Origin: Dehalococcoidia bacterium
GTDB lineage: Bacteria > Chloroflexota > Dehalococcoidia > Plut-88900
Direction of reading: 5' to 3'
DNA length: 64,000 nt
NCBI GenBank assembly: GCA_965197585.1
Contig: OZ240215.1
Location: 2,112,001-2,176,000 of the forward strand
Position 1 is the stretch's first letter. Every line of letters begins with the position of its first letter. Of the stretch, positions 24,158-52,864 are shown in pieces. The notes under the pieces are model-generated. The model saw only the letters and a list, made by a program, of their open reading frames with translations. It was not told the DNA's origin and did not search any database. Both the position numbers and the translations under genes were made by a program.

Positions 24158-25452
24158 ATGAAACTTGAACTAGCCAACTTCCCCGTGGAACGCATCATAC
24201 TGGGAGACGAGACCCGTTACATCGATGGCGAACTCCACGTCAGTCCCGAGGCCGTTCGCTCCGTATGTTCGACGAAGAATTCTTCGACGACATTTCAGTC
24301 CATGTCGCCCATCCCGGAGACTCGACCCGCCTTATCCATATCGTCGACGTAGTGGAGCCTCGATATAAGCAGTCGGGGCCCGGGTGCGTTTTCCCGGGCA
24401 TCCTCGGCCCTCCGGTGCAGGTTGGAACGGGCAGAACGGCCCGACTCAACGGCATGGCCGTGATATCAACATCCGGACCCGCCGCCGGGGAAAGCCAATA
24501 CTGGCGCGAGGCCATACTCGACATGTCGGGGCCCGGGGCCGGTATTCCCACTTCTCACAAACGGCCAACCTCGTCGTGGAGCTGTCTCCCAAAGACCCGG
24601 GGTCCGACACCCCACGGGAAGACGTGGAAACCCTGAACACCCTCCGGGGGTCTGTTCACAGTCAGAGAATGAACGTGGCGCTGAGGAAAGCTCAAATTGC
24701 TCTCGCCTCATATCTCGCCGAGACGGTCTCGGGCTTCTCGCCTGCCTCTGTAGATACCTATGAGCTTACGGATGTTGACCCCTCACTCCCGAAGGTAGTC
24801 TACGGTTGTCAGGTGGTGAGGGATCTTGTCTACGGTATCCCCCCAGGATGGCAGCCGACCCTGCTCCATCCGAACGAACTGATGGATGGCGCCGTCTTCC
24901 GTGTTTTCAACTACCTGGCCTCGGCAAAGAGCACCATCTACGATCAGCAGAACCATCCCCTGGTACAGGCGCTGTATCAACGTCATGGCGTTGACCTCAA
25001 CTTTCTGGGTGTGCTCCTGATACCGGCGGGAAACGAAAAGCTGAGCGAGAAAGAGCTTTCCGCCGGGTACGCCGCCAAGCTGCTCAGGATGCTGCACGCA
25101 GAACGGGGTAGTCATTTCATGGATGGGTGGAGGTCACCTGGCTATCGATCCCATGCTTCTGATTAGAAACTGCGAAAGGGCCGGTATAAACGCTTCCCTG
25201 CTGAGTCCCGAGATGGCCCGCACCCCCGACGACACCGGTTTCGTATATTTCGCCCCCGAGGCGGAGGCAATCGTGAGTACGGGCAACTTCGAAGAGCAAG
25301 TCGTTTTGCCGCGTGTCGACCGAGTCATAGGCGGGAAATCGCTTCTAATGACCGGTGACGACCCGCGGGGAGAACTAACCGTTCGCATCGGTCAGATTCT
25401 CGGCGCCACCCAGACCTTTGGGAAGGGCAGGTTGTCCGGGATTGCATATTAG
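24158..25452 (+). CDS. GrdE-like proprotein, copy 2, with three apparent 1-nt indels (~24263, ~24540, ~25103)
   Basis: Collinear with copy 1 from MKLELAN to GRLSGIAY across four ORF fragments, with no internal nonsense codons once the frames are joined. Confidence 0.75.
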
Positions 25453-25543
25453 GCAGTATGGAGTAGTATCGATACGGGAATCGGGTAGAATAGGGCCAGC
25501 CTGGTCGCCAGGCGTTGCCCAAGCAGCATTTCAGGGGGAGAGC

Positions 25544-27836
25544 ATGACTACCACCAACTACGAGCCCAACGTTGTCCTTGCCACCGGAGAATTCGACACC
25601 ATCGGGACCCGACCCATCAGGCACGACGGTGTAGACAAAGTCACTGGCCGCGCCCTGTACGGCGCCGACTTTCAGGCCAGCGATCTGCTCCACGGCAAGA
25701 TCCTTCGCAGCCCCCATGCCCACGCCCGCATCATCTCTATAGACACCTCCAAGGCGGAGGCCTACCCGGGCGTCAAGGCCGTGGTCACCGCCGCCGACTT
25801 TCCCGCGGGTGAACAACAGGGGCAGATGCAGATGGGCGAGATCAGCATGAGCCTCCGCTTCATGCGGGACAACGTCCTCGCCAGCAAGAAGGTGCTGTAC
25901 CCCGGACACCCCGTAGCCGGGGTAGCGGCAGTGAACGCCCACGTGGCCGAGGAAGCCATTAACCTCATCGACGTCGAATATGAAGTCCTCGAACCCGTGC
26001 CCACCGTCCTGGATGCAATCAGGGAAGGCGCACCCCTCCTCCACGATGACCTCAAGACCGAGGAGTTCGGCCAGCAGACGGACAAGGTAAGCAACATAGC
26101 CAGCCACTTCCAGCACACGATGGGAGACGTGGAAAAGGCGTTCGTCCGAGGCGGACTACGTGGTCGAGCGTGAGTTCGACACCAAGACCGTTCACCAGGG
26201 CTACATCGAGCTCCACAACGCCACCGCGTTCTGGAACCGGGACGGCCGGGTGACGATCTGGTGCAGCACCCAGGGCCCCTTCGAGGTTCGGGACGCAACT
26301 GCCGGCATCCTGGGACTGGACGTTTCGCAGGTCAACCTGGTGCCAATGGAAATAGGCGGCGGGTTCGGGGGCAAGTTCGAGCCCTACGGCGACCCTGTGG
26401 CCGCCCTCCTTTCCAAGAAAACGGGACATCCCGTCAAGATTGTCATGACTCGCCTGGAAGAGATCGAGAGCACCGGCCCGACCCCCGGCTCCTACATCAA
26501 GGTTAAGATGGGCGCCAGCAAAGAGGGCAAAATCGTCGCGGCGCAGGCTTACATGGCATACGAAGCAGGGGCATATCCCGGCTCTCCAATAGGCGCCGGC
26601 GCCCTGTGCATCTTTGGCCCCTACGACATCCCCAACGTCCTGATAGACGGGCTGGATGTCGTGGTGAATAAACCGAAGACCGCCGCCTACCGGGCCCCGG
26701 GCGCGACCAACGCATCCTTCGCATCCGAGACCATCGTCGACGAGCTGGCTGCTATGGCGGGCATGGACCCCCTAGACTTCCGCATCAACAACGCTTCCAG
26801 GGAGGGCACCAGGAGGGCCGACAGCGTACCCCACCCCAAGGTCGGCTGCATTGAGGTGCTACAGGCTATGAAGGACCACCCCCACTGGAACGCCCCTCTG
26901 GAAGGCGAGAACCGGGGCCGTGGTGTGGGACTCGGGTTCTGGATGAACTTTGGCGGTCCGGCTAGCTGCACGATCAAGGTAAACGCCGACGGAACCGTGG
27001 CTCTCCGGGAAGGCTCCCCTGACATCGGAGGCACAAGGACGACGATTGCCATGCAGGCCGCCGAGGCGCTGGGCATATCGGCGGAGAGTGTGGTGCCGGG
27101 TGTAGTGGACACCGACTCGGTGGGCTACACCAATGGCACGGGCGGCAGCAGCGTCACCTTCAAGCAGGGGTTGGCCGCTCACGAGGCGGCCCAGCACGTC
27201 AAGCAGCAGATGATTGCCCGTGCCGCGACCATCTGGGCCATTGAGCCCGATTCTATCAAGTTCGAAAAGGGTGTCTTATTTTCCGAATCTGACCCCGAAC
27301 TGAAGATGACCTTCGCCGAGCTTGCCTCCAAGATTGAGGAAACGGGCGAGCCGATTGTCGGAGTGGGTAATGTTCAGGCCACCAAGGCAGGGGCCTCATT
27401 CGCCGGCTCCATCGCCGACGTGGAGGTCGACCCGGAGACCGGAAAAGTGAAGATACTGCGCTTCACCATGATCCAGGACGTGGGCAAGGCCGTACACCCC
27501 AGCTATGTCGAGGGACAGCTGCAAGGCGGCGGCGCCCAGGGCATCGGGTGGGCAATGAATGAGGAGTATTTCCTCAACGACAAGGGCCAGGTCCTCAACT
27601 CCAGCCTGCTGGACTACCGCCTCCCCACCAGCCTCGACCTCCCGATGATCGACACCGTAATCGTAGAGGTCCCGAACCCCGGCCACCCCTTCGGTGTACG
27701 GGGAGTCGGCGAGGCGAACATCATCCCGCCCGCCGGGGCCTTGGGCAACGCCATCGCCAACGCAATCGGCGTCAGGATGGCGAACCTGCCGATGAATCCG
27801 CCAGCGATACGGGAAGCCATTGGGCGCAAGGGCTAG
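25544..27836 (+). CDS. Xanthine dehydrogenase/CoxL-family molybdopterin-binding subunit (apparent +1 indel at ~26147)
   Basis: DKVTGRA.Y, RSPHAHARI, GGGFGGK, AYRAPG, EGQLQGG and GVGE. Confidence 0.85.
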
Positions 27837-29109: not shown

Positions 29110-30108
29110 ATGGCTGACGATCGAGTCCTGATAGTAGACGGAGCACAGCACCACAAGTGGACCAAGGAGACCTTCGAGGACATCCGGCAGGGTGACATCA
29201 GCGCGGTCAACATCACGCTTGCCATCTGGGAAAACGCCCGCGAGACCCTCGCCGAGATCGGGCAATGGTACCGCCGCTTCGACCAGTTCTCGGACCTCAT
29301 AATGCCCGTCTACACCTCGGACGACATCAGGGCTGCTTATGAGGCCAAGAAAACGGGAATACTCTTCGGCTTTCAAAACACCTCTCCCCTCGAAGACAAC
29401 ATCGAGTTTGTAGCAGTCTTCGCCAAGCTCGGGGTCCGGGTTATGCAGCTCACCTACAACACTCAGAACCTGATAGGCTGCGGTTGCTACGAGCCCAACG
29501 ACAGCGGACTCACCTACTTCGGAGCGGACGTGATCGCCGAGATGAACCGTCACGGCGTAGTCATAGACCTCTCACACACCGGCGAGCGTACTTCCATGGA
29601 CGCCATCGAGGCCTCGACCCAGCCGGTAGCAATCACCCACGCCAACCCGACCTGGTGGAAGGACGTCCAGCGCAACAAGTCGGATGACATGATGAGGGCC
29701 CTTGCTGAGAACGGCGGCGTGATGGGCCTGGGCACCTACCCCAACCTCTTCGCCCCCGACGGCACCCTGGAGCAGTTCTGCGACATGGTCGCCCGCACCG
29801 TCGACTTCATGGGCATAGACCACGTGGGTCTCGGCAGCGACCACAACACAGGCTTCCTCCCCGACGAAAAGCGCTACTGGGCCCGTGGCCGCTGGTCTCG
29901 GGAAGTGCCCAAGTTCATGAGCGCCAAGGGCTTCCACAGCCCCAAGTGGCCGGCAATCGACTGGCCCGAATGGTGTGAAAAGCCCTCGGGGCTCAGGGTA
30001 ATTCCCAACGGCCTCCGGGAGCACGGCTTCAACAATGAAGAAGTCTCCAAGATCATGGGCGGCAACTACCTGCGGGTGTTCGACCAGGTGTCCGCAGCCG
30101 CAAGCTAG
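29110..30108 (+). CDS. Membrane dipeptidase (M19) family protein, PA5396-like
   Basis: GFQN, QLTYN, MNRHG..DLSH, RNKSD, GSD and GGNYLRV. Confidence 0.88.
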   Translation: MADDRVLIVDGAQHHKWTKETFEDIRQGDISAVNITLAIWENARETLAEIGQWYRRFDQFSDLIMPVYTSDDIRAAYEAKKTGILFGFQNTSPLEDNIEFVAVFAKLGVRVMQLTYNTQNLIGCGCYEPNDSGLTYFGADVIAEMNRHGVVIDLSHTGERTSMDAIEASTQPVAITHANPTWWKDVQRNKSDDMMRALAENGGVMGLGTYPNLFAPDGTLEQFCDMVARTVDFMGIDHVGLGSDHNTGFLPDEKRYWARGRWSREVPKFMSAKGFHSPKWPAIDWPEWCEKPSGLRVIPNGLREHGFNNEEVSKIMGGNYLRVFDQVSAAAS

Positions 30109-31428: not shown

Positions 31429-32371
31429 ATGAGTATTGGTACAATCGGGGTGGAAGTCTCGGGCCGTAACGCGACCGAAATCGTCGGGCAAATACAACGG
31501 CTTGGAGGATCTGGGCGTCAAGGCTGCCTGGGCCACTTCGGGCGGCGACTCGGATCCCATAACCCTGCTTGCCGTGGCGCCTGGCAGACCGAGTCCATAC
31601 TCCTCGGCACATCCATCGTCCCAACCTGGCCCCGCCACCCGATTACCATCGCCCAGCAGGCCAACGTCCTCGCCCATTCGGCCCCGGGCCGCTTTCGCCT
31701 CGGCATTGGACCAAGTCACTACTCGGAAATGTATCGAGCCCTTCCGGTTCAACTTCCGAAAGCCCCTCACCAACCTGCGGGAATACCTGCGGATAGTGAA
31801 GCCCCTGATCCAAAAAGGCTCCGTAGACTTCGACGGTGAGCAGTACCACGCCCACGTCGCCGCCGCAGACGCGTTCCCCGACATGCCGGTCATGGCCTCG
31901 GCGCTCAGACCTCGGTCATTCCGGCTCTGCGGAGAGGAGGCCGACGGTGCGATCAGCTGGGTCTGCCCACTTGCATATTTGCGGGACACAGCGCTCCCCG
32001 CCATGAGAGCGGGTGCCGACTCCGCCGGACGCCCGACACCCCCGCTAATCGCTCACGCCGTGGTCTCGGTCCACGAAGACTACGACGATGTCAAAGAGGC
32101 TGCCCTGGAAGAGATGGCATACTATCCCACCGCTCCCTTCTACCAGCAGATGTTCGCCCTGGCCGGGTACCCCGAGGCAGAAGAGCTGAATGGCTGGAGC
32201 GACCGGATGCTCAAGGAGATCGTGATATCCGGCTCCGAGGATGAGGTCGCACCAAGGCTGGAGCAGTTCTTCGACACAGGCGCCGGAGAGGTGCTGGTCT
32301 CCATCATCCCCGCAGGCCCCGACAAGCGAGCCTCGTGGGAGCGGACGGCCAAACTCCTCGCGAGTCTTTAG
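31429..32371 (+). CDS. LLM-class oxidoreductase, paralog of 12272-13228 (several apparent 1-nt indels in the 5' third)
   Basis: The pieces GTSIVPTWPRHP, APGRFRLGIGPSH, LREY and GEEADGAISW are spread over two frames. Confidence 0.8.
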
Positions 32372-33552
32372 TCTTCCCAGTAGGGTGTGTAGCCGGCCGT
32401 GGTGAGCTGGTCAAGACCCGTGGCCGTAACCTGGTACATGTCCTCGACCTTGACGACTACGGTCTCCCCGTTCACCTCCACCGAGGTCTCAGGCTCCAGG
32501 CAGATCACCATTCCCTCTTCAAGCTGCGCGTCAACCATCATCATGTCCGGGCGATAGATGATGGGAAGCTCGCAAGCCCGAAGCCCTGTCCCGTGGCCCA
32601 GGGAGTAGGGCGTTGTCGGGTAGCCGGACTTTGCCAGCAGGTCGTTGACTGTGCGGTCCAGGTGGGAGACGCGGACGCCGGGCTTGGCCTCGGCCTCTGT
32701 GGCCCGGTGGGACTCCATCAGCACCTTCCATGCCTTCTGCACGGGCGCGGGAGGCTCACCCACGAAGCCCGTCCTGCACATGTCGGATCCGTACCCGCCC
32801 TTTACGTAGCACCCCCAGTCAAACGCCATCGTTCCGCCTTCCTCCATCTTGCTCCCCCTCGGAAACCAACCGGCTGTCAGCTGGCTTTCACCCTTGATGC
32901 AAACGTTATGGGTGATGAACTCGGCGCCCTGGGCCCGCATCGTACCGTCAATGGCCGACAGCACCTCGAAGTCCAGCGCGCCTTCCTGCATGGCCTTCAG
33001 TCCTGCGTCCCCTCCCATAGATGCAATTTCGGCGCTGGAGCGGATCAGCTTGATCTCCTCCGAGTGCTTCACTTGTCGGGCAAGGGCCAGTGGCATGTAG
33101 GCATCCAGGAACGTGGCCTCCGACATCATGCGTTTCATCCCATCCCACAGCTGGAACGGCATTGCGTCGACCCCCACCCGCCGTGCCCCGAGGCTTCTCA
33201 GCTTGCGCGAAAGGATGTCGACCCAGATCTCGGCCTGGGTGATGCTGGAAACCCACGAGGGAGTGGGTACGAACTCCTTGATCCAGGGCAGGTTGGGCAT
33301 TGGCTTGTCTACCACGCGGTCGACATAGGGAATGTATAGGGAAGCCTCGCCTTCCTGCGTCACAATCGCCGCGAACCAGTCGTAGGATTCGCAGATCAGG
33401 AAGACGCCAAAGTCCGTGGCATATCGGATGTTGTCGTGGCCCATGAGGACGAGGGCGTCAACGTTGGCGTCCTTCATCACCTGGGCAACCCTCTCGGTGC
33501 GGTACTTGCGAAGGCCGTTCCAATCGATATCCGGGTAAGAGTACATGCTCAC
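32368..33552 (-). CDS. M24 family metallopeptidase-fold enzyme (Xaa-Pro peptidase/creatinase/DddP-like)
   Basis: NIRYATD; metal ligands D..D (FDWG..GSD), GHGTG, LEP and VED. Confidence 0.88.
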   Translation of the reverse strand: MSMYSYPDIDWNGLRKYRTERVAQVMKDANVDALVLMGHDNIRYATDFGVFLICESYDWFAAIVTQEGEASLYIPYVDRVVDKPMPNLPWIKEFVPTPSWVSSITQAEIWVDILSRKLRSLGARRVGVDAMPFQLWDGMKRMMSEATFLDAYMPLALARQVKHSEEIKLIRSSAEIASMGGDAGLKAMQEGALDFEVLSAIDGTMRAQGAEFITHNVCIKGESQLTAGWFPRGSKMEEGGTMAFDWGCYVKGGYGSDMCRTGFVGEPPAPVQKAWKVLMESHRATEAEAKPGVRVSHLDRTVNDLLAKSGYPTTPYSLGHGTGLRACELPIIYRPDMMMVDAQLEEGMVICLEPETSVEVNGETVVVKVEDMYQVTATGLDQLTTAGYTPYWED

Positions 33553-33670: not shown

Positions 33671-34675
33671 TTGAACATGGAGGAGCGGGCCCAGACCATC
33701 TACAACGACGCCATCGCCATCGATGGGCTGAACATCAGCAACTGGGAGAGCCCGGCTGTTTATCAAAGCCTGAGCAACGGCAACCTCACGGCCATCAACG
33801 CCACAATCGCCGTCTGGGAGGGTTTCGAAGAGACTATGGACCACGTGGCAGGCTGGAAGCGCCGCTTTCGTGAGATGCCAGACACCCTATCCCAGGTCCG
33901 GTCGGTCGACGACATTTTGCGCGCCAAGGATGATGGGAAGGTGGGGATAATTCTCGGGTTTCAGAACGCCTCTCCCATCGAGAACAAGCTCGACAGACTG
34001 GAGCTCTTTCACGACCTCGGCGTTAGGGTCATCCAGGTCACCTACAACGAAAGAAACCTGTTAGGTAATGGGTGCTGGGAGCGCACAGATGAGGGCTTGA
34101 GCAACTTTGGGGAAGACGCCGTGCGAGAGATGAACCGCTTAGGCATACTCATCGACCTCTCCCACGTCGGTGATCGTACTACCCTGGAAACGGCAGAGTT
34201 GTCGGATAAGCCGGTTTCGGCCACCCACGCCAATGCCCGCTCCCACTTCGAGCACGTCCGCAACAAGACCGACGACGCCCTCAAGCTCATCGCCGAGAAG
34301 GGTGGCGTTGTCGGGGCCAACGCGTTCCCGCCCTTCCTGCCCAAGAGCTTCGAGTCGACCCTATCCGACTACGTGGACGCAATAGACGACCTCGTGGACA
34401 GAATAGGAATCGACCACGTTGCCATTGGCACCGACTACACCCAGGACCAATCCAACTCCTTCTTCGATTGGCTGTTCTCGCAGCAGGGCACCAAGATTCG
34501 TCCCCGCCCCGTTCCCTACCCCTCACCCCTCCTTCACCCCAAGGGTATGGAAACTCCCGACCGATTCTCCAACATCGCCCTTGAGCTCCTGAACCGGGGA
34601 TACAGCGAAGAGGACATCAGGAAAGTACTGGGTGGTAACTGGGTGCGGTTGCTGCGGGAGGTCTGGGCTGATTAG
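33671..34675 (+). CDS. Membrane dipeptidase (M19) family protein, PA5396-like
   Basis: IDGL, GFQN, DLSHVG, RNKTD, IGTDYTQ and GGNWVR. Confidence 0.88.
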   Translation: MNMEERAQTIYNDAIAIDGLNISNWESPAVYQSLSNGNLTAINATIAVWEGFEETMDHVAGWKRRFREMPDTLSQVRSVDDILRAKDDGKVGIILGFQNASPIENKLDRLELFHDLGVRVIQVTYNERNLLGNGCWERTDEGLSNFGEDAVREMNRLGILIDLSHVGDRTTLETAELSDKPVSATHANARSHFEHVRNKTDDALKLIAEKGGVVGANAFPPFLPKSFESTLSDYVDAIDDLVDRIGIDHVAIGTDYTQDQSNSFFDWLFSQQGTKIRPRPVPYPSPLLHPKGMETPDRFSNIALELLNRGYSEEDIRKVLGGNWVRLLREVWAD

Positions 34676-36587: not shown

Positions 36588-36974
36588 TCAGGCGGGCTCA
36601 ATATCAGTAAGGGCAAAGTCCGAGCCCTTGAATAACAGCGGTTCCCGCGTTGTTTCTGCCAACGCATAAGCGAAACAGTCACCAAAGTTTAAGCCTGCGG
36701 GATGATTCCCCTTGCCGAATCGCCGCCAAGCCCGTCGTGCGGCCTGTGCTTGCTCGGGAGTAACCGACACCACTTCTATTGGCCCTCTGTCTAACAGCAC
36801 GTCCAACTGATGTCCGCCCACCACTCCCGCACGGCTTTCTACAACTATCGTAGATTCCAGTAGGCTAGCAGCTGAGATGCGGCACTGAGGAGCATTGGCT
36901 ATTGCCCTTTCATACCTCCCAGCATCCGGTTCACCAAACAAGATTGCCAGCAGGGCAGATGAATCCACGATCAT
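36588..36974 (-). CDS. vapC: VapC PIN toxin (VapC30-like)
   Basis: MIVDSSA, GKGNHPAGLNFGDCFAYA and LLFKG.DF. Confidence 0.93.
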   Translation of the reverse strand: MIVDSSALLAILFGEPDAGRYERAIANAPQCRISAASLLESTIVVESRAGVVGGHQLDVLLDRGPIEVVSVTPEQAQAARRAWRRFGKGNHPAGLNFGDCFAYALAETTREPLLFKGSDFALTDIEPA

Positions 36975-37228: not shown

Positions 37229-37399
37229 GACATTTCCTTTAGGGTAGAAAGCATAGCAATGATTCTACCATATCACCAACCGGTCAACCGAATTCCACTA
37301 TCACCTCTCTCGAATCCCCCTCCCCCCAATTGACACCACCACCCCGCTAAAGGTATGTTTTGTGCCGTTTCCGGCCCGTGCCCTGGGGACGACCTAGCC

Positions 37400-39061
37400 A
37401 TGCCTCAAGCAGACGTCATATTCCATAATGGCCCCATCTTAACCGTCGACGCACAGGACACGGTCTCTCAGGCTGCGGCGGTGACCGGCAACAAGATTTC
37501 TGCCGTAGGTTCTGCGGAAGAAGTGCTGGCGTCCAAGGGTGATGGTACCCACGTCGTAGACTTGGCCGGTCGGGCCCTCGTACCCGGCTTCAACGACGCC
37601 CACACTCACCTGGAACTCACGAGCCTGGGCCTCGGGCTCGCCGTCAGTTGCCACACCCCACCCCACGAGAGTATCGAAGACATCCTCGCCACCCTGAGCG
37701 AGCACGCCGCGGGCGTGCCCAAAGGCGAGTGGATAATCGCCCAGGGCAGCCTCTTTCAGGACATGCGCCTCAGGGAAAAGCGCTACCCCGACCGGCACGA
37801 CCTCGATCGCGTCAGCGTCGATCATCCCATCCTGTTCAAGACCAGCTACCACATGGTGGTAGTCAACAGCAAAGTGCTGGAGATCGCAGGCATAACCTCG
37901 GATACCCCCGACCCTCAGGGAGGCATCATCGAAAGAGACTCCTCCGGCGAGCCCACGGGCCGCATGAAAGACATGTACCACCGACTCCCGGTACCAATGC
38001 CCGACTACGAAACGGTCAAGGGCGCCATCCGGCGCACCGTCCACGACCGTTTCCTGGCCAACGGCGTTACCACGGTCCAGGAGATGTCCGAGACCGTGTC
38101 GGGCCTCGGGGCGATGCGGGAGCTCATAGACTCCGGCGAGATGCCCCTCAGGCTGAGCGTCTATATCCACGTGCCCGGCACCCTGCCCCTGGACAACGTG
38201 CTGAATAACGAGATCGGAGACTTCGAGTTCGACGATGCGTGGCTCAGGCTCGGAGGGGTCAAGCTGTTCATTGACGGCGGGTTTTCCGCAAGGGCCGCCG
38301 CCCTCCGAGACCCCTACGAAGGCTATCCGGATATCACCGGAAAGCTCGGCTACGAAGACCGGGAGCTCAGGAGGATCGTGCGCAAGGTACACCGGGCTGG
38401 GCTCCAGTTGCGTATGCATACCAACGGCGACCGAGCCATCAAGCAGCTCATCGATGCATTTGAGACGGTGTTCGGCATTCCGGCGGGCGTCGGAGAGGAC
38501 TGGCCCTACCGGCACCGCGCCGAGCACGTGGGCAATGTTCTTCTCCGCGATGACTTGACCATCTCGCGGCTGGCAAGCGCCAAGATTCTGCCGGTACCCA
38601 ACCCTGCGTTCATCTACAGCGTCGCCGAGTTTGTTGCCCCATATCTCGGCCCGGAGCGCAGCCATCCTTCATTCCGATTCAGGACCCTTTTGGACGCCGG
38701 TTTCCGAGTTCCGGGCAGCTCGGACTGCACGGGCACCGACCCCTGGCTCGTCAACCCCATGTTCGGCATCTGGTGCATGGTCAACCGTCGCACCTACTCC
38801 GGGGACCTGCTGGAACCCGAGGAGAAGGTCTCCGTCGCCGAGGCCATACGCATTTACACCTACAATTCCGCCTACGCCGAATTCCAGGAAGAGGTCAAAG
38901 GATCCATCGAGGAAGGGAAACTAGCCGACCTAGTGGTGCTGGACCGTGACCCGATCACAGCGCCGGAAGATGAGCTAAAAGACATAAGCGTCGACCAAAC
39001 GTGGGTGGACGGCAAGCTAGTTTTCAGTAGAGATCCTAATAAGGAGAGCAGCAATGGGTGA
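37400..39061 (+). CDS. Amidohydrolase_3 (YtcJ-like)
   Basis: PGFNDAHTH, KLFIDGG, HTNGDRA, HRAEH, GSSD and GKLADLVVL. Confidence 0.9.
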   Translation: MPQADVIFHNGPILTVDAQDTVSQAAAVTGNKISAVGSAEEVLASKGDGTHVVDLAGRALVPGFNDAHTHLELTSLGLGLAVSCHTPPHESIEDILATLSEHAAGVPKGEWIIAQGSLFQDMRLREKRYPDRHDLDRVSVDHPILFKTSYHMVVVNSKVLEIAGITSDTPDPQGGIIERDSSGEPTGRMKDMYHRLPVPMPDYETVKGAIRRTVHDRFLANGVTTVQEMSETVSGLGAMRELIDSGEMPLRLSVYIHVPGTLPLDNVLNNEIGDFEFDDAWLRLGGVKLFIDGGFSARAAALRDPYEGYPDITGKLGYEDRELRRIVRKVHRAGLQLRMHTNGDRAIKQLIDAFETVFGIPAGVGEDWPYRHRAEHVGNVLLRDDLTISRLASAKILPVPNPAFIYSVAEFVAPYLGPERSHPSFRFRTLLDAGFRVPGSSDCTGTDPWLVNPMFGIWCMVNRRTYSGDLLEPEEKVSVAEAIRIYTYNSAYAEFQEEVKGSIEEGKLADLVVLDRDPITAPEDELKDISVDQTWVDGKLVFSRDPNKESSNG

Positions 39062-39500: not shown

Positions 39501-40520
39501 ATGAAATTCAGCTACTACCTGCCCTGCTACTACACGGACAAGTCCAAGCCCGCCTCCGAGCTCTACGCCGAGGCCGAATACCAGGCCCAATACGCCGAGG
39601 AACTCGGTTACGACGCCATCGTCATACCTGAGCACTATTTTATGAACTACCTGGCCTGCCCGAACTTGCTGATGTTCGCGGTAAGGATCTCGCAGTTGGT
39701 GAAGCTGAGGATCATGTCGGCGGTCATCCCCATCCCCTTGTACCACCCGCTCAGGCTGGCGCAGGACATTGCCTTCGCCGACGTGCTGTCGGGAGGCAGG
39801 CTGGAGATCGGGCTCGGGCGCGGTGCCTTCGTCCACGAGTTTGAGCGGCTGCAAATACCCCGTGACCAGAACCGGGCCATGTTCAACGAATGCCTGGACA
39901 TCATGATCAAGGCCTGGACGTCCGAGCAAGATTTCTCCTACGAAGGAGATTTCTGGCAGTTCCCGGATACCACCGTCCTCCCTCGACCCCTCCAGCAGCC
40001 CCACCCCCCGATCTGGATGTCGGGCCAGTCCGACCTCTCGGTCCAGTACGCGGTGTCCCACGGTTACAAGCTGATGAATACCCCGTTGCGGAGCGGGTTC
40101 GAGGCCCTGGAGGAAACCTACGAAGTCTACTCCGACGCCCTGGACGAGTGGGGCAGAACGGAAGAGGAGTGCCCGCTCCTGATTCTTCGTAACGCCTTCG
40201 TCTCCGAGGACAAGGACGTCCTCGAACGGCAGGCTCAGAACCTGCACCTCAACCACCAGCAGTTTGTTACCGTGTACACGGGCCCGAGCGTTGTAAAGGA
40301 AGGCATGATTGAGCCGCAGAACGTCCCCTACGAACCGTGGGAGGTGTTCGACAACGTCATAAGTGGCACACCCGACGAGGCGATTCAGAAGCTTGAACAG
40401 TATCGAGACCTGGGGATCAAGTATCTCTGCGTGAACATGGGCTTTGGCGGCAGCCACGAAGAAGTGATGGATTCCATGCGCCTCTTCTCCGAGCACGTGA
40501 TGCCCCACTTCCCGGACTAA
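39501..40520 (+). CDS. LLM-class flavin-dependent monooxygenase
   Basis: PEHYF, HPLRLAQD, GRLEIGLGRG and PRPLQQPHPP. Confidence 0.9.
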   Translation: MKFSYYLPCYYTDKSKPASELYAEAEYQAQYAEELGYDAIVIPEHYFMNYLACPNLLMFAVRISQLVKLRIMSAVIPIPLYHPLRLAQDIAFADVLSGGRLEIGLGRGAFVHEFERLQIPRDQNRAMFNECLDIMIKAWTSEQDFSYEGDFWQFPDTTVLPRPLQQPHPPIWMSGQSDLSVQYAVSHGYKLMNTPLRSGFEALEETYEVYSDALDEWGRTEEECPLLILRNAFVSEDKDVLERQAQNLHLNHQQFVTVYTGPSVVKEGMIEPQNVPYEPWEVFDNVISGTPDEAIQKLEQYRDLGIKYLCVNMGFGGSHEEVMDSMRLFSEHVMPHFPD

Positions 40521-40922
40521 CCTATCCTAATGCCCTGACCCAACCGTCTAAAGGCGCAATCCCATTACTTCGCCTACGCCCTGGCCGTTCCTCTTGACAA
40601 GGCGATTGGGTTCAGTGGGAAACTACCGACGCAACATGCCCGACGTTCTCCTCGCTAACTCCATAGGAGATGGAGAAGGTGAGTTCCTCTTCTTCAGCCA
40701 TCCCAGCCGCCCGTCTCACGGTCCTCTATCGTCGCCCCGATCACAGATACTCCTAGCGGACCCAACTCCTCGCGGCCTTTCTCATGGGAGGCCAACTGCA
40801 CCCTACCGTAGTAAGGTCACCACTCGCCCCTATAGAACAGCATGGCAATCTAAACTCCGAATCAAGGCCTGAGAAACGGAATGAAATCCAAATCTTAGTA
40901 CAACTTAGTAGTGAGTCTGGTC

Positions 40923-40931
40923 GTGTATAAT
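40923..40931 (+). promoter_or_regulatory. TATAAT -10 element upstream of grdB
   Basis: GTGTATAAT about 60 nt before ATG 40991. Confidence 0.45.
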
Positions 40932-40990
40932 GCCCAACGGAAGCCGAGCCCCGGAATGGGTGTATTTCAAGCGTGACGAGGGAGCAGGCC

Positions 40991-42301
40991 ATGACAAATT
41001 TGAAGGTAGTCCACTATCTGAACCAGTTCTTCGCCGGTGTGGGTGGTGAAGAGAAGGCCGACGTTGGCCCCGGAGCCCGGGAAGGCGCAGTCGGACCCGG
41101 CATGGCCCTGAACCAGGCCCTTGGAGACGCCGGTGAGGTCATCGGAACCGTCTACTGCGGCGACAACTACATCTCCGAAAACCCCAAAACGGCGACCCAG
41201 GAGGTCATCGAGCTTATATCTCAGTTCAAACCGGATATCGTGATTGCCGGTCCGGGATTCGGCTCCGGACGCTACGGGTTGGCCTGTGGTCAGGTATGCC
41301 TGGCAGTTAAAGAGAATCTCGAAATCCCTGCCCTTACCGGCGTCCACAAGGACAGCCCTGCCGCTGAGACCTACAAGGGTAAAGTCCTGATGGCCTCGAC
41401 CAAGGACTCGGCTGCCGGTATGTCCGACGCAATGGCCGTAATCGCACGGCTCGCCTCCAAGCTGGTCGACAAAGAAGAGTTGGGTCCGGCCATGGAAGAA
41501 GGCTACTTACCCACCGGTCGACGCGTTAACCGATTCTCTGACAAGACTGCCGCGGAACGGGCCGTAGACATGTTGATGCGCAAACTCCGGGGCGAAGACC
41601 CGAAGACCGAATGGCCCCTCCCCAAGTACGAGCAAGTTGCTCCCGCACAGGCCCTTGCCAGTGCCGGGAACGCCACCATTGCCATCGTCACTGAGGGTGG
41701 AATCGTACACCGTGGCAACCCCGAGAAACTGGAATCGGGCTGGGCCACCAAGTGGGTCAAGTTCGACACGGCGGAAGAGCCGGAGATGACCCCCGACAAG
41801 TTCCAGAGTATCCACGGCGGTTTCGACACCACCACCGCCAGCGCCGAACCCAACCGGATGGTTCCCCTGGACGCAGCCCGAGAGATGGAGTCCGAGGGGG
41901 AAATCGGCAAGCTCCACGACTACGTCTACAGTACCACGGGCAACATGGGGCCAATAGCCAGCTTCAAGCAGTTCGGGGAGGAGATAGCCGCCGAGCTAAC
42001 CTCGGCAGGGGTCCAGGGAGTGATCCTAACCGCAACCTGAGGCACCGGGACGCGTAGCGGCGCTACGCTTCAGAAAGAGCTTGAGAGGGCCGGCCTCCCG
42101 ACCGCTCTCGTAACCACCCTGTTCAATCTCGCAGAGGGAGTCGGGGCCAGCCGTATCGTCAAAGGCAAGGCCATCCCACACCCTCTCGGAGACCCGAGCC
42201 AGACCTACGAGGGCGAAAAGCAACTGCGTAAGGAGATGCTGAAGAAGGCCCTTGAGGCCCTGGAGACCGAGGTCGCATCGCCCACGGTTTTCACTACCTA
42301 G
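40991..42301 (+). CDS. grdB: Glycine/sarcosine/betaine reductase selenoprotein B-like, 436 aa, Sec at UGA 42038-40 (codon 350)
   Basis: VVHYLNQFFAGVGGEEKAD, CGDNY, GRYG, HGGFD and VILTAT-UGA-GTGTRSGAT..LERAG.P..IPHPLGDP. The frame continues 86 codons to TAG 42299-301. Confidence 0.9.
42052..42068 (+). promoter_or_regulatory. Putative bacterial SECIS of grdB
   Basis: GCGTAGC-ggc-GCTACGC hairpin; the G-initiated loop starts 19 nt after the UGA. Confidence 0.65.
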
Positions 42302-42314
42302 CAACCAAATCTGC

Positions 42315-43799
42315 ATGACTACCCAATCCCCCGCATTCATAAGCAACGGCCAGGGCTTGGCACCGGTTATTAAGGGAGTGGCCTATTGTCTTGCCCACGT
42401 CCCAGACTTGGTGCGGCTCGGGTCCAAGCCATCCCGGGACATACCCATCGAACCCGGCGTTCTGGACATGATTCATCAGCACCTGCGGGACTTCGACGAA
42501 GCTGTGGCCTACCCTCCACACCAGGTGTTCATCGGCAACATGCGCCCCGACGACCTGAAGGATGTCCCCAAGCCGTGGTTCGATAACCTGACCGCCGATG
42601 CCAAAAGGACCGGCCCATTCGGCGAGGTTATGCCCCAGGCCGAGTTCTACGGCTTGATGAAGATGTGCGACCAGTTCGACCTGATGTCACTGGACGAGGG
42701 TTTCCTTGAAGAGGCCCGCACTACAATGTCAGGCCACCCCCTCATCACCAAAGAAGACCTGGACAACCTTGGTAAGTCCACTCCCATCTCCGAGATCGAA
42801 AAGGCCATAAACGAAGAGGACGCCCTCCCCCTTTACATGGATAAGACCCGACTAGTCGGGTGCCTGCAAAGAGGCCACGAGGAGGATAAATCCCTCGTCC
42901 CCGACTTCCTCATCGAAAACCTCGCAGCCAAGGCCTCCGCCGTCCTCGCCCTCAGGCACCTCTGCAACACTGCCACCAATACGCCCCCCGAGAACATTGA
43001 CTACTTGCTTGGCTGCGGCGAAGAGGCCATTGGTGATAGATACAACCGGGGCGGTGGAAACCTCGCCAAGGCCGTCGGAGAGATGTGCCGTTGCATGAAC
43101 GCCACCGGGTCGGACGTCAAGGCATTCTGCTGCGCCCCGAACCACGCCATTATCGTCGGCGGCGCCCTCATCAAGTCGGGCGTGTTCGAAAATGTGGCAG
43201 TAGTGGCTGGCGGCTCCTTCGCCAAGCTGGGTATGAAATACCGGGGCCACGTAACTCATGAAATGCCCGTGCTCGAAGATGTGCTGGCGTCCATTGCAAT
43301 ACTCCTGGGCCCCGACGACGGTGAGAATCCACACGTACGTCTAGATATGATAGGCAAGCACAATATTTCGTCCGGTATGTCAAACCAGGCCATCACGCAG
43401 GCCGTCGTCATAGACCCCTTGAAGAAGCACGGCCTCAAGATCACCGATATCGACCGATTCGCCACCGAGCTGCACAACCCGGAGATCACCGAGCCCCAGG
43501 GCAGCGGCAACACCCCCAGGACCAATTACCGGATGCTGGGCGGCATGGCGGTCAAGGAGTCGGAGATTGAGGCCTCGGAACTGGACCGGTTCGTTGACAA
43601 ACACGGGATGCTCGGCTTCTCTCCGACCCAGGGGCACATAGCCTCGGCAGTTCCTTTCCTAGGCCACGCCCGGGAGATGATCATGGCGGGCGACATCAAC
43701 CGGGCCATGTTCTATGCCAAAGGGAGCCTGTTCCTGGGCCGCATGACCCAGCTCTCCGACGGCATATCCTTCATGATGGAACGCAACGGCGGCCGGTAA
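42315..43799 (+). CDS. grdC: Glycine/sarcosine/betaine reductase component C beta subunit-like
   Basis: PVIKG..Y.L.HVPD, YPPHQVFIGN, EEAIGD, ATGSD, ELHNPEIT, PTQGHI and KGSLFLGRMT. Confidence 0.9.
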   Translation: MTTQSPAFISNGQGLAPVIKGVAYCLAHVPDLVRLGSKPSRDIPIEPGVLDMIHQHLRDFDEAVAYPPHQVFIGNMRPDDLKDVPKPWFDNLTADAKRTGPFGEVMPQAEFYGLMKMCDQFDLMSLDEGFLEEARTTMSGHPLITKEDLDNLGKSTPISEIEKAINEEDALPLYMDKTRLVGCLQRGHEEDKSLVPDFLIENLAAKASAVLALRHLCNTATNTPPENIDYLLGCGEEAIGDRYNRGGGNLAKAVGEMCRCMNATGSDVKAFCCAPNHAIIVGGALIKSGVFENVAVVAGGSFAKLGMKYRGHVTHEMPVLEDVLASIAILLGPDDGENPHVRLDMIGKHNISSGMSNQAITQAVVIDPLKKHGLKITDIDRFATELHNPEITEPQGSGNTPRTNYRMLGGMAVKESEIEASELDRFVDKHGMLGFSPTQGHIASAVPFLGHAREMIMAGDINRAMFYAKGSLFLGRMTQLSDGISFMMERNGGR

Positions 43800-43881
43800 C
43801 CTGTATCCAGTGTAGAATTAGGCCGTTACGACGCTATTTTGAGATTGGTTGGAACGTTTACTGAAACTCAGGAGGTGCGCC

Positions 43882-44340
43882 TTGGATTTTAAAGGTATGA
43901 AGGTGATCGCCATAGGAGAGCGGGATGGCGTCCAGGGCCCGGCTATTGCCGAGGTGGTACGCAGCGCTGGGGCGGAGGTGATCCTGGAACAGACCCAGTG
44001 CTTCGTCTGAACTGCCGCAGGCGCCATGGACCTGGATGGTCAGGCAGAAATTAAGAAGGCTATAGAATCCAACGGCAAGGACAACGTTATAGTCGTCCTC
44101 GGTTCGCCCGACGCTAACAGCGCCGAGCTCTACGCCGAGACCGTGACCCACGGTGACCCGAGCTGGGCCGGCCCCCTGGCAGGCGTTCCTCTGGGACTGC
44201 CGGTTTACCACGTCGTAGAACCCGTGGTCAAAGACGCTGTGGACGCCGGTACGTACGATAAGCAGGTCGGGGTCATGGACGTGGCCCTGGAGAAAGACCT
44301 CATCACCGCCGCCCTGGACAAGGTGCGCAACAAGAGCTAA
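43882..44340 (+). CDS. grdA: Glycine reductase selenoprotein A, 152 aa, Sec at UGA 44008-10 (codon 43)
   Basis: GGAGG + TTG start; KVIAIGERDGVQGPAI..QCFV-UGA-TAAGAMDL..ETVTHGDP..GPLAGV.LGL.VYH. The ORF track shows only the post-UGA part. Confidence 0.92.
44012..44047 (+). promoter_or_regulatory. Putative bacterial SECIS of grdA
   Basis: CTGCC/GGCAG lower stem and GCCAT/ATGGT upper stem; the loop GGACCTGG starts at 44028. Confidence 0.55.
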
Positions 44341-44371
44341 GCCCCGATCAGTGGCCTACCCCTCTGTGCAT

Positions 44372-44440
44372 GGGGAGTCCAGAGGGGTAATACCTCTTTG
44401 GTGGGGGTTTGGGGGTATCCCCCAAACCACTTATATTTTC
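44372..44440 (+). terminator. REP-like unit plus hairpin after grdA
   Basis: GGAGTCCAGAGGGG..CCTCTTTGG, then GGTTTGGGGG-tat-CCCCCAAACC and a T-rich tail. Confidence 0.55.
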
Positions 44441-44510
44441 CCTTCCCTCTTTTGCAAGGAGAAGGGACGCAGCAGTAAAGAAGTCAATCTCGCCATTCAC
44501 CTAAGGAGGC

Positions 44511-45254
44511 ATGACGATGGAGAACAGGAAGAGAGTCGGAATGATGATGCCCTCGGCGGATGGCACCGCCGAGCCTGACTTTCAGATGGTACTCGCTCCC
44601 AAGGGCGTAGCCGTGCACGGACACCGGCTCTGGCAGGGCGACAACCGCCACGATCCCGAAGAGCACTTCGGTAAAATGAACTCTGAAATCGAGTCCGCTG
44701 CCCGGTACTTGTCCTCCGTCCGCCTGGACGCCATAGCCTACACGTGCACCACCGGCAGCTTTTTCAAGGGACCCGGGTGGGATCAGGAAATGCTGCAGAA
44801 GATTAAGGGTGCGTCGGGGGTGGAGGCATTCGCAACTACTCCTTCGGTCGTGAAGGCCTTGCAGTTCAAGGGGGCCCGCAAGATCTCGGCCATCACTCCC
44901 TATCCTGAGTGGAACAACATAAAGCTCAGGGAATACATGGAGGCCAGGGGCTTCGAAGTCCTGAACGTCGACGCCCACCCCAAGCCGTCCCTGGGCGAGA
45001 TCATGGCCTACGAACAGGAACCCGACGAGATAGTCGAATACGGCATCGAGAAGTGCGACCCCGACGCTGACGTCCTCTTCTGCTCCTGCACAGACTGGCG
45101 GTCCATGGAGGCCGCCGAGCGTCTGGAGAAGGAGACCGGCAAACCGGTCGTCACATCGAACCAGGCCACCATCTGGCTCATCCTCCAGCACCTTAGCATA
45201 GATGAGCCGATAAAGGGCTTCGGCAGTCTGCTGGAGACCCCCGCCCCGGCCTAG
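44511..45254 (+). CDS. Asp/Glu racemase superfamily protein (maleate isomerase/AMDase/EutA-like), copy 1
   Basis: GMMMPS, YTCTTGS, TPY, FCSCT and PVVTSNQA (two catalytic Cys). Confidence 0.88.
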   Translation: MTMENRKRVGMMMPSADGTAEPDFQMVLAPKGVAVHGHRLWQGDNRHDPEEHFGKMNSEIESAARYLSSVRLDAIAYTCTTGSFFKGPGWDQEMLQKIKGASGVEAFATTPSVVKALQFKGARKISAITPYPEWNNIKLREYMEARGFEVLNVDAHPKPSLGEIMAYEQEPDEIVEYGIEKCDPDADVLFCSCTDWRSMEAAERLEKETGKPVVTSNQATIWLILQHLSIDEPIKGFGSLLETPAPA

Positions 45255-45336: not shown

Positions 45337-45789
45337 TTATCCAATCTCCAGCGGATTCAGGACCGACAGGCCTTCTAGTTGGGCCGCATCGCAAAGGCGA
45401 GCATCTGCGCAGACAAAGGTAACGGGTGGAGGGACACCATGACAGGCAGCCAGACAACCGGCAAGTTGAATGGCATCGTAAGCCTTTAGCGGGTGTCGGT
45501 CTAGCAACCGAGCAGCCTCTTCAATAACCTCAGACCCCGATGGCTGAATCAAGAAGAGCGACGACCTGTCTTCTTCAATCTGCTTTAGTATCAGGCTAGC
45601 GTCCGATCCACTAATGTCCTCCTCCCTCTCGCGTCTGCGAATTGCAGAACGGGCCTCGACCGCGGTGAGGTCCAAAATGATTAAGTGATTGTCCTCGTCA
45701 CCTCGGGCCAAGGACAGCACTTCGGCAGTCCCCTCTTCTTCAACGTAAAGCTTGAGCAGTGCACTCGTGTCAAAGTAGAAGCTCGCCAT
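45337..45789 (-). CDS. vapC: VapC PIN toxin
   Basis: YFDTSALLKLY..E.G, LKAYDAIQLA and FVCADARL. Confidence 0.9.
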   Translation of the reverse strand: MASFYFDTSALLKLYVEEEGTAEVLSLARGDEDNHLIILDLTAVEARSAIRRREREEDISGSDASLILKQIEEDRSSLFLIQPSGSEVIEEAARLLDRHPLKAYDAIQLAGCLAACHGVPPPVTFVCADARLCDAAQLEGLSVLNPLEIG

Positions 45790-51241: not shown

Positions 51242-52864
51242 CTACAACCCCAGAATGTTTCCCTTTTCATCAACGTCAAGGGCGCGGGGGGAGGCCGGTA
51301 GACCGGGCATCGTGACCATGGTCCCGGCCAGCGGATATATGAATCCCGCCCCCGCCGACGCCCTAACGTCAGATATCTCAAACGTGTACCCGGAGGGCCG
51401 ACCCTTGAGTCTAGCATTGTGGGAGATCGAAAGGTTCGTCTTCGCCATGCACACCGGCCATTTACCCCAGCCCATGTCCTGGTAGGTCTTTAGCCTTCTG
51501 CGGGCGGCCGGGGCCCATGCCACGTCATCGGCGTTGTATACCTTTTGGGCCAGGGCCAATACCTTCTCTTCGGTAGAAGCGTCCTCGGGGTACAGGTACG
51601 AAATCTCCGGTTTGTCACCCGCGCTCGCATCCATGACGGCTCGGGCCAGCTCCAAGCATCCATCTCCGCCCTCGGTGAAGCCCCGGCTCTCGGCAGACCG
51701 AACGCCGTCAAGGCCCGCAACTGCGTTGCGCACGGTGGCTATCTCTTCATCGGTGTCGGCTGGGAAGCGGTTGACGGCAACCACCACCGGCAGATTGAAG
51801 CTGCGTATCATCCCGATAAGGTGAAGCAGATTGGGCATACCGTCGACAACCGCCTTCGGATTGCCCTCGTCTAGCTTGGCCAGGGGGATACCGGCGTGCG
51901 ACTTAAGTGCCTTGACCGACACCACGATCACCGCCGCATGGGGCTCGACGTCGTTGAACCGGGCCTTGATGTGCATGAACTTCTCGAAGCCCAGGTCGGC
52001 CCCGAACCCCGCCTCCGTGACTACGTAGTCCGCCAGCGCAAGGCCCATCCTGTCCGCAATCACCGAGCTGCACCCGTGGGCGATGTTGCCGAAAGGTCCG
52101 GCGTGGACCATCACGGGCTGACCCTCGGCTGTCTGCACGAGGTTGGGCTGTATCGCATAGCGAAGCAGTGACATCATGGACCCGACCGCACCCACGTCAT
52201 CCGCGGTAACCGGCTTCCCGGCCCGCGTGAACCCGACCACTATTCGGGAAACACGATCCCTCAGGTCCTCCAACCCCGAGGCCAGGGCCAGTATGGCCAT
52301 CACCTCTGAGGCGGTCACGATATCGAACCCGGTCTCCCGCACCGGAGCATTGGCCGCTCCACCGATGCCCGTCATTATGGAGCGTAGTGCTCGGTCCTCG
52401 ACGTCCGTGACCCTTCGCCACGTGATGTCCTCAGGCCCGAAGCCCTCGATCTGGCCCCGCTGCACGACGTTGTCCGTGAGGGCGGCCAGCAGGTTGTGCG
52501 CCGAGCCCACGGCGTGGGCATCTCCGGTGAAGTGGATGTTGATCTCGTCATCTGGCATGACTGTAGTCTTGCCGCCGCCCGTGCCGCCGCCCTTGATCCC
52601 GAATATCGGGCCCAGAGACGGCTCCCTCAGGTTGGCGATCACCTTTTCACCCAGCTTTCCCAGGCCTTGGGTCAGACCCACGGTGACCGTGGTCTTTCCC
52701 TCACCTGCTCGAGTCGGGGTGATCCCCGTGACCACTATCATCTTGCCCCTGGACCCCGACGTATCGACGGATTCCAGGGGAATTTTCGCCTTGTAGTGGC
52801 CGTAGGGCACTATCGATTTTTCATCGAGGCCAATGTTGGCCGCGATCTCTTGAATGGGCCGCAT
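51242..52864 (-). CDS. fhs: Formate--tetrahydrofolate ligase
   Basis: PYGHYKAK, TPT.AGEGKTT, REPSLGP, INIHFTGD, HAGPFGNIAHG, TEAGFGADLG and TMPGLP. Confidence 0.96.
   Translation of the reverse strand: MRPIQEIAANIGLDEKSIVPYGHYKAKIPLESVDTSGSRGKMIVVTGITPTRAGEGKTTVTVGLTQGLGKLGEKVIANLREPSLGPIFGIKGGGTGGGKTTVMPDDEINIHFTGDAHAVGSAHNLLAALTDNVVQRGQIEGFGPEDITWRRVTDVEDRALRSIMTGIGGAANAPVRETGFDIVTASEVMAILALASGLEDLRDRVSRIVVGFTRAGKPVTADDVGAVGSMMSLLRYAIQPNLVQTAEGQPVMVHAGPFGNIAHGCSSVIADRMGLALADYVVTEAGFGADLGFEKFMHIKARFNDVEPHAAVIVVSVKALKSHAGIPLAKLDEGNPKAVVDGMPNLLHLIGMIRSFNLPVVVAVNRFPADTDEEIATVRNAVAGLDGVRSAESRGFTEGGDGCLELARAVMDASAGDKPEISYLYPEDASTEEKVLALAQKVYNADDVAWAPAARRRLKTYQDMGWGKWPVCMAKTNLSISHNARLKGRPSGYTFEISDVRASAGAGFIYPLAGTMVTMPGLPASPRALDVDEKGNILGL

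Follow-up and report, generated by a model that had tools for sequence, protein, structure and literature searches.

The closest described counterparts of the system reported here are the clostridial GrdABCDE reductases of Peptoclostridium acidaminophilum and Acetoanaerobium sticklandii and the betaine reductase encoded on a plasmid of Enterococcus gilvus. In Acetoanaerobium noterae the cluster is ordered trxB-trxA-grdE-grdA-grdB-grdC-grdD, and in E. gilvus trxB-trx-grdA-grdC-grdD-grdI-grdH-BCCT. A further relative is the fluoroacetate reductase (Far) of Synergistota (PMC10838667), a Grd-derived, dehalogenating enzyme, which shows that a bond from carbon to a heteroatom other than nitrogen is within reach of a Grd-type component B. 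In the present study we have analysed a 64,000-nucleotide stretch of a Dehalococcoidia genome (contig OZ240215.1, positions 2,112,001 to 2,176,000, hereafter the window), in which three genes ordered grdB-grdC-grdA encode a system of this type. It shares with the clostridial enzymes the CxxU motif of GrdA, the selenocysteine (Sec) position of GrdB, the GrdC protein and a selenocysteine insertion sequence (SECIS) just after the UGA, whereas it differs from them in having no GrdD, acetate kinase (AckA) or phosphotransacetylase (Pta), in a UxxGxxS motif in GrdB, in grdE genes that are unlinked and without Cys at the precursor column, and in its aerobic host. We consider it likely that the locus encodes a working, Sec-decoding module of the Grd type in an aerobic host, which would act on betaine-like substrates and would have no route to acetyl phosphate and ATP.

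Grd genes from Dehalococcoidia are already in print, as the relevant sections of Nobu et al. 2022 (PMC9751293) and Brazelton et al. 2022 (PMC9469722; bioRxiv 10.1101/2022.01.25.477282) attest. The legend of Supplemental Figure S11 of the Brazelton preprint (10.1101/2022.01.25.477282) assigns SAR202 metagenome-assembled genomes (MAGs) to a separate GrdB clade and mentions one MAG with two copies, and the cluster is written there as 'GrdEBCA'. The organisms are of the same class as ours, and in our case two GrdB copies occur in every genome of the genus. Thus the original prediction of a Grd system outside the usual Firmicutes setting was right about the system, and its implied novelty falls. 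Published models of Dehalococcoidia and other uncultured groups read Grd as converting glycine and reductant into acetyl phosphate and hence ATP; Nobu et al. (PMC9751293) and the Brazelton preprint both treat the enzyme as acetyl-phosphate-making, and the word 'GrdD' occurs 0 times in either main text. A full-text literature search, with supplementary tables outside its scope, turned up no paper discussing Grd without GrdD. The interest of the locus lies in a GrdD-less, probably non-pyruvoyl Grd variant with a clean sequence signature, and this signature together with the missing GrdD, AckA and Pta puts the assumed energy yield, and perhaps the substrate, in doubt.

The first gene, grdB (40991-42301, + strand, TAG stop at 42299-42301), encodes a selenoprotein B-family protein of 436 residues with Sec350 in the motif U-G-T-G-T-R-S. 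It is followed by grdC (42315-43799, +), coding for the 494-residue β subunit of component C, which has a thiolase/KAS III fold, the nucleophile Cys272 and the residues Tyr243, Lys308 and His387 of a GrdD-less class described below. The third gene, grdA, extends on the + strand to 44340 (TAA stop at 44338-44340) and encodes selenoprotein A with the motif C-F-V-U. Translation from the ATG at 43897 gives 147 residues, and the start is probably the TTG at 43882, five codons earlier, because the sequence AGGAGG (43870-43875) sits 6 nt before it and the proteins of relatives cover those residues. The two stop codons and the probable start of grdA are corrections to the original account. The arrangement of the three genes points to one + strand operon and a single transcription unit. 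A terminator-like hairpin with a T-rich tail (44406-44428, +) lies 65 nt past the grdA stop and is weak when taken alone, with one site found against a mean of 3.9 in shuffled sequences. A promoter scan found none, and Rfam models gave no match at E up to 1 over positions 40000-45000, with neither a glycine riboswitch nor any other known RNA in the 470-nt spacer upstream of grdB.

The family assignments of the original prediction stand by curated cut-offs. GrdB matches PF07355 with 452 bits and the subfamily model TIGR01918 with 508.5 bits (cut-off 65) over residues 5-434, GrdC matches NF040746 with 668.5 bits (cut-off 450), and GrdA, with its CxxU motif, matches NF040748 with 198.5 bits (cut-off 130). 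GrdB scores below all the substrate-specific equivalog cut-offs, namely 513 against 800 for GrdF, 470 against 602 for GrdB and 437 against 775 for GrdH.

Both in-frame UGA codons, at 42038-42040 in grdB (+, context LTAT-U-GTGTRS) and at 44008-44010 in grdA (+, context QCFV-U-TAAGAMDL), were found as predicted, and at each of them the family sequence runs on in frame past the TGA as well as before it. Standard open reading frame (ORF) calling cuts both genes short, as had been claimed, and with such truncated gene calls the Grd system is easily lost from the annotations of an abundant marine lineage. The host genome, a single contig of 3.43 Mb, encodes selA (543 bits), selB (370 bits), selD (385 bits) and tRNA-Sec (65.8 bits with Rfam; called as SeC with anticodon tca by ARAGORN), which is the whole set of genes that the original prediction had pointed to. 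TGA is also the ordinary stop of 5 of the 26 family-supported genes in the window, which argues that it has not been reassigned genome-wide, and a scan of the window for TGA read-through returned, besides grdB, off-frame noise only. In a sample of 41 related genomes, GrdA occurs in 16 (8 of 8 further species of the genus; 10 of 11 of the family), each of the 16 matches having one in-frame TGA, and these 16 are also the genomes with GrdC. For GrdB the number of genomes is 15 of the 41, and all 28 of its matches have one in-frame TGA, one of them also a TAG. The selD gene of the host (C1:3357253-3358176, -, locus L013) has one in-frame TGA of its own, and the selenophosphate synthetase is probably itself a selenoprotein here.

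Downstream of the UGA of grdB we identified a SECIS-type hairpin (42052-42068, +) with a 7-bp stem (42052-42058/42062-42068) and the loop GGC at 42059-42061. The stem starts 14 nt and the loop 18 nt after the UGA, and the loop reads GGN across relatives. In an alignment of 21 distinct GrdB sequences 98% of the cells are paired, three of the seven pairs have changed on both sides (G-C/U-A, U-A/C-G and A-U/U-A), and the covariation of 0.205 compares with 0.056 in shuffled alignments (0 of 500 as high) and with no more than 0.086 when the pairing partner is shifted. The change from Cys to Ser in the GrdB motif falls inside this stem, and the opposite arm has changed to match. In grdA the conserved hairpin (44029-44041, +) consists of a 4-bp core, GACC and GGUC, closing the loop UGGAU, which is UGGAN across the sequences compared and starts 22 nt after the UGA. 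All 13 distinct sequences have the same four pairs, even at three synonymous third positions, and there is no covariation; the SECIS support from this hairpin is weaker than that from the hairpin of grdB. The prediction of G-started loops 17-19 nt downstream thus fits grdB and fails for grdA. Neither hairpin is stabler than its shuffles (z of -0.32, 0.06, 0.18 and 0.89), so that the support is comparative and not thermodynamic. The complete Sec machinery, the conserved TGAs in 16/16 GrdA and 28/28 GrdB matches and the covarying grdB hairpin together support the decoding of both UGAs as Sec in genes that appear to be working, as originally proposed.

The four nearest public records, whose GrdC proteins are 91-96% identical to that of the window, are titled Dehalococcoidia MAGs, and the genome encodes a subunit I of haem-copper oxidase (COX1, 534 bits), from which the host reads as an oxygen-respiring Dehalococcoidia bacterium. 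For the putative SAR202-like placement of the original prediction, the evidence consists of these record titles and of the agreement with the published remark on two GrdB copies. In one metatranscriptome library the contigs of a relative about 94% identical span 40952-43133 and 43106-44340 and so run across the two UGAs as well as the two gene junctions. Four public sequence runs were compared, all as contigs, and UGA-bridging contigs are present as records 9 and 11 of X18 and records 27 and 31 of X4; a piece of X20 (42014-42282), whose part before the UGA is shorter than 31 letters, was not counted as bridging. Related transcripts appear in sponge and other metatranscriptome libraries.

The most conspicuous departure from known systems concerns GrdD. 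The GrdD model NF040747 has no match in the host genome, and none of the 41 relatives reaches its cut-off, the only matches being 16 weak ones of at most 32 bits. A tblastn search with the annotated GrdD of the E. gilvus plasmid gave a best E of 0.13 in the host genome, and in every other locus compared it found nothing with an E of 1e-3 or lower. As a control, this query recovered GrdD directly behind grdC in A. noterae (50% identity) and in Photobacterium sp. (47%), which belong to two other phyla. The model itself exceeds its cut-off in 49 of the 151 genomes sampled from a Bacillota-type phylum, and GrdC is present in 51 of these 151. AckA and PTA_PTB were likewise not found in the host genome. 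A 376-residue ORF between grdC and grdA in the relative G030 was considered as a divergent GrdD and rejected, being a helix-turn-helix plus glutaredoxin-like protein.

We then compared the 80 metagenome loci most like the window GrdC (45-65% identity), which show gene orders such as grdE-grdB-grdC-trxA-grdA and have GrdD in none of the 80 within the flanks compared. Where 1.2 kb or more of sequence follows grdC, as in 51 loci, the gene after it is trxA in 23, grdA in 10, grdE in 2, trxB in 1 and another gene in 15. Fifteen unlabelled ORFs after grdC were examined as possible GrdD and discarded, as they belong to YedE, TAXI-TRAP, PrpD-like, PurC, sigma-54 regulator, MtaA-like and other proteins. 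The putative selenium transporter of the YedE family stands after grdC in loci L102 and L104, and a methyltransferase of the MtaA/CmuA family in L178. Genome-wide searches of two MAGs, from Desulfobacula and Halanaerobiaceae, which are the closest GrdC carriers with a name outside the class, gave no GrdD either.

Three residue positions split the GrdC sequences into two classes without exceptions. Tyr243, Lys308 and His387 are found in all 74 GrdD-less proteins, while GrdD-linked proteins have Asn, Asn and Gln, in 3 of 3 sequences from plasmid records and in 29/29, 30/30 and 30/30 of further loci. In a quick IQ-TREE search, with support from the Shimodaira-Hasegawa-like approximate likelihood ratio test (SH-aLRT) alone, the three GrdD-linked rows cluster together on a long branch (SH-aLRT 100), apart from the 74 GrdD-less rows; for the 30 further GrdD-linked loci the comparison was by residues, outside the tree. 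The scores with the GrdC model agree with this division in the Bacillota-type sample, where two GrdD-less genomes give 627 and 664 and complete GrdD-linked proteins at least 742, compared with 668.5 for the window. Thus, by its sequence, the GrdC of the window belongs to a distinct and widespread GrdD-less class, and the three positions provide a simple sequence test that separates the two. If a GrdD-independent class of GrdC is real, the 'glycine reductase' annotations of many environmental genomes would not imply a substrate-level gain of ATP. A Bacillota-type genome, G153, has grdC and grdD broken by TAA, TAG and TGA (C1:1069624-1072309) in a cluster that is apparently decaying.

An AlphaFold model of GrdC (predicted local distance difference test, pLDDT, 89.8; predicted template modelling score, pTM, 0.91) was used for a fold search, in which the KAS III enzymes FabH and OleA were closest (E about 1e-10). 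Single-sequence searches of the PDB with GrdB and GrdC gave no match, and KAS III and SpoVAD were reached by profiles only. When 53 GrdC sequences were combined into a profile, their invariant Cys272 fell on the nucleophile of the KAS III enzymes (E 6e-4), so that GrdC shares with FabH and OleA the fold and a Cys at the position of their nucleophilic Cys; it differs from them in an identity of about 12-16% and in an N-terminal extension of about 190 residues, and no condensing activity is implied. The C-terminal GrdC profile matched SpoVAD only, over the region of His441, and His387 is without a KAS III alignment. It is an idea that His387 and the invariant His441 complete the catalytic site with Cys272 in a Cys-His-His triad.

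Component B is atypical in both of its parts. The window GrdB carries U-G-T-G-T-R-S (UxxGxxS), in which both motif Cys are missing, whereas the canonical U-G-T-C-T-R-C is present in GrdB of A. noterae and GrdH of E. gilvus; the UxxCxxC motif of selenoprotein B is named in PMC13188914. The Cys at U+6 is kept in 24 of 25 metagenome GrdB sequences. The same motif as in the window recurs in a second GrdB-family selenoprotein gene of the host (C1:1578959-1580260, +; locus L062 9900-11270), which stands alone without grd neighbours and is kept in all nine genomes of the genus.

There is no gene of the GrdE family next to grdB, the nearest copy being 17 kb off, and the genome encodes six intact copies and one broken. 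A paralogue of the GrdE/GrdG/GrdI family (component B alpha-type; 22780-24075, +) lies 17 kb upstream of grdB and lacks a Cys in the column of the pyruvoyl precursor. Next to it, at 24265-25452 (+), a second copy is broken over three frames, its Pfam matches falling on profile positions 39-123, 120-305 and 313-419, and represents either a pseudogene or indel errors in the assembly. Two of the other copies are at 2.38 Mb and three at 3.24 Mb, the latter beside a transporter of the MFS family. A sister genus has the operon grdE-grdE-grdB-grdC-grdA and, directly upstream of its two grdE genes, a divergently oriented MFS gene, and the orthologues of this MFS gene and grdE pair are found at 3,238,479-3,241,091 of the host genome (57% identity), which indicates that the cluster has been split in the present genus. 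The GrdE triple at 3.24 Mb is interrupted by a PIN gene (L064 10789-11238). The pair at C1:2381395-2384000 (L063) lies among four family III CoA-transferases, an FAD oxidase and a hydantoinase-type gene, a neighbourhood that hints at a CoA-linked pathway around GrdE-family subunits.

The residue cleaved to form the pyruvoyl group is Cys242 of Clostridium sticklandii GrdE. At this column (numbered as in A. noterae GrdE) a Cys is present in the proteins of Acetoanaerobium, Photobacterium, Halanaerobiaceae and Dehalococcoidia G034, and the six own paralogues have N, L, F, N, M and N, with Cys in 0 of 6. GrdI of E. gilvus, a subunit of betaine reductase, has F. It is suggestive, not firm, that the GrdE paralogues are of a non-pyruvoyl type. 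With the E. gilvus betaine reductase our system has in common alpha-type subunits without the pyruvoyl-column Cys and a transporter linked to the genes of the alpha subunits. It is unlike that enzyme in its GrdB, which scores lowest on the GrdH model (437 vs 775), and E. gilvus GrdH keeps UxxCxxC, with GrdD present and GrdC of the Asn/Asn/Gln type. The GrdE paralogues give secondary matches to FarE (NF053623) of 126.6 bits against a cut-off of 675, and are not members of that family.

We propose that the GrdE-family partner of GrdB comes from another locus, most likely from the grdE pair next to the MFS gene at 3.24 Mb, because this is orthologous to the pair in the sister-genus operon. The selenolate of GrdB would take a carboxymethyl-type group from the substrate and pass it to the Sec of GrdA, and Cys272 of GrdC would then receive the group as an acyl thioester while GrdA becomes oxidised, to be re-reduced by a thioredoxin-type system. 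The acetyl group may leave as acetyl-CoA or acetate through GrdC alone, in a catabolic or an assimilatory step; since GrdD, AckA and Pta are missing, this kind of release is probable and substrate-level phosphorylation is not. The lack of Cys in the six GrdE paralogues, as in GrdI, makes a quaternary 'onium' or another activated X-CH2-COO- compound a likelier substrate than glycine or sarcosine. The reductive cleavage anticipated in the original prediction is consistent with membership of the Grd family, but not in its textbook form, and the missing GrdD and the atypical, unlinked GrdE make 'other C-heteroatom cleavage' the better half of that proposal. More tentatively, we suggest that there are two functional classes of GrdC: a GrdD-linked one that has lost the catalytic His and needs GrdD, and the Tyr243/Lys308/His387 class, which would work without GrdD towards acetyl-CoA or acetate and, in aerobic Dehalococcoidia, might serve a selenium-dependent, NADPH-driven cleavage of betaine-type osmolytes by way of non-pyruvoyl GrdE/GrdI-like paralogues.

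Several points weigh against this proposal. Activity, substrate and product are predictions from sequence, and the best curated matches of GrdB are the sarcosine and glycine forms, not betaine. The absence of GrdD, AckA and Pta depends on a single-contig assembly with a marker completeness of 91.9%, and 'GrdD-less' in the metagenome loci means no GrdD within flanks of at most 4.5 kb. The loop at the pyruvoyl column aligns poorly, with a Cys four columns on in one paralogue and about nine in three. The TrxB-like match, full-length with 288 bits, is under the equivalog cut-off of 343 and unlinked to the operon. Finally, contigs from RNA libraries are no proof of transcription, and the letters at both TGAs are not established in them.

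One alternative is an ordinary glycine or sarcosine reductase of the Stickland or reductive glycine pathway, which would produce acetyl phosphate with unrecognised analogues in place of the missing parts. GrdA and GrdC exceed their equivalog cut-offs and the top curated matches of GrdB are GrdF and GrdB, a formate-tetrahydrofolate ligase gene is located 7 kb away (51242-52864), this chemistry is the one assumed in published accounts of Grd in Dehalococcoidia, and some GrdD-less systems (G034 and the Halanaerobiaceae locus) keep the GrdE Cys. We nevertheless judge this explanation unlikely, given that GrdD, AckA and Pta were not found in a one-contig genome which encodes a haem-copper oxidase, that the precursor-column Cys is present in 0 of 6 GrdE paralogues, and that GrdB is under the GrdB, GrdF and GrdH cut-offs with both motif Cys missing.

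Rather improbable, too, is a phosphorolysis carried out by GrdC alone, in which Lys308, His387 and Tyr243 with an invariant RGGGN loop would form a phosphate site replacing GrdD and the acetyl phosphate would be used by an enzyme other than AckA or Pta. The class residues are basic or polar and fixed in 74/74 sequences, compared with Asn/Asn/Gln in GrdD-linked GrdC, and GrdD-less loci are common, usually with trxA and grdA beside grdC; however, with AckA and Pta not found, the genome has no recognisable consumer of acetyl phosphate. We find it hardly credible that translation ends at the TGAs or that the genes are in decay, with only truncated or inactive products arising. ORF calling does cut both genes short, a GrdE copy nearby is broken and the hairpins are no stabler than shuffles; against this, the TGA and its downstream frame are kept in 16/16 and 28/28 matches, the grdB hairpin has compensatory changes, and the Sec machinery is complete with a SelD that itself appears to contain Sec.

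The surroundings of the proposed betaine-type reductase module agree with the oxygenase-rich setting of the original prediction, in that several luciferase-like monooxygenases are encoded in the window. One of their genes (39501-40520) lies upstream of grdB, a position kept in other species of the genus; in four congeneric species grdB follows the monooxygenase gene almost at once, while here the spacer of 470 nt (40521-40990) lies between, and 201 nt of it are found once more, with 74% identity, at 2.93 Mb of the genome. In relative G010, of the sister genus, grdA is followed by a flavoprotein gene (L101 9973-11139; Pyr_redox_3, with a weak match to flavin-containing monooxygenase) and then by an Amidohydro_3 gene, and a 33%-identical Amidohydro_3 gene is present here upstream of the operon (37355-39061).

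Genes for PIN-domain proteins of the toxin type stand on either side of the operon neighbourhood (36588-36974 and 45337-45789, both -). The window also encodes two M19 dipeptidases (29110-30108 and 33671-34675, +), a creatinase/prolidase-type M24 peptidase (32368-33552, -) and the formate-tetrahydrofolate ligase already mentioned (51242-52864, -); the products of these genes could supply or use small nitrogen compounds and one-carbon units. Further upstream, the large subunit of a molybdenum hydroxylase of the xanthine dehydrogenase/CO dehydrogenase type is split into two ORFs (25418-26173 and 26160-27836, +), which overlap in different frames and encode the hammerhead domain and then two domains binding the molybdenum cofactor.

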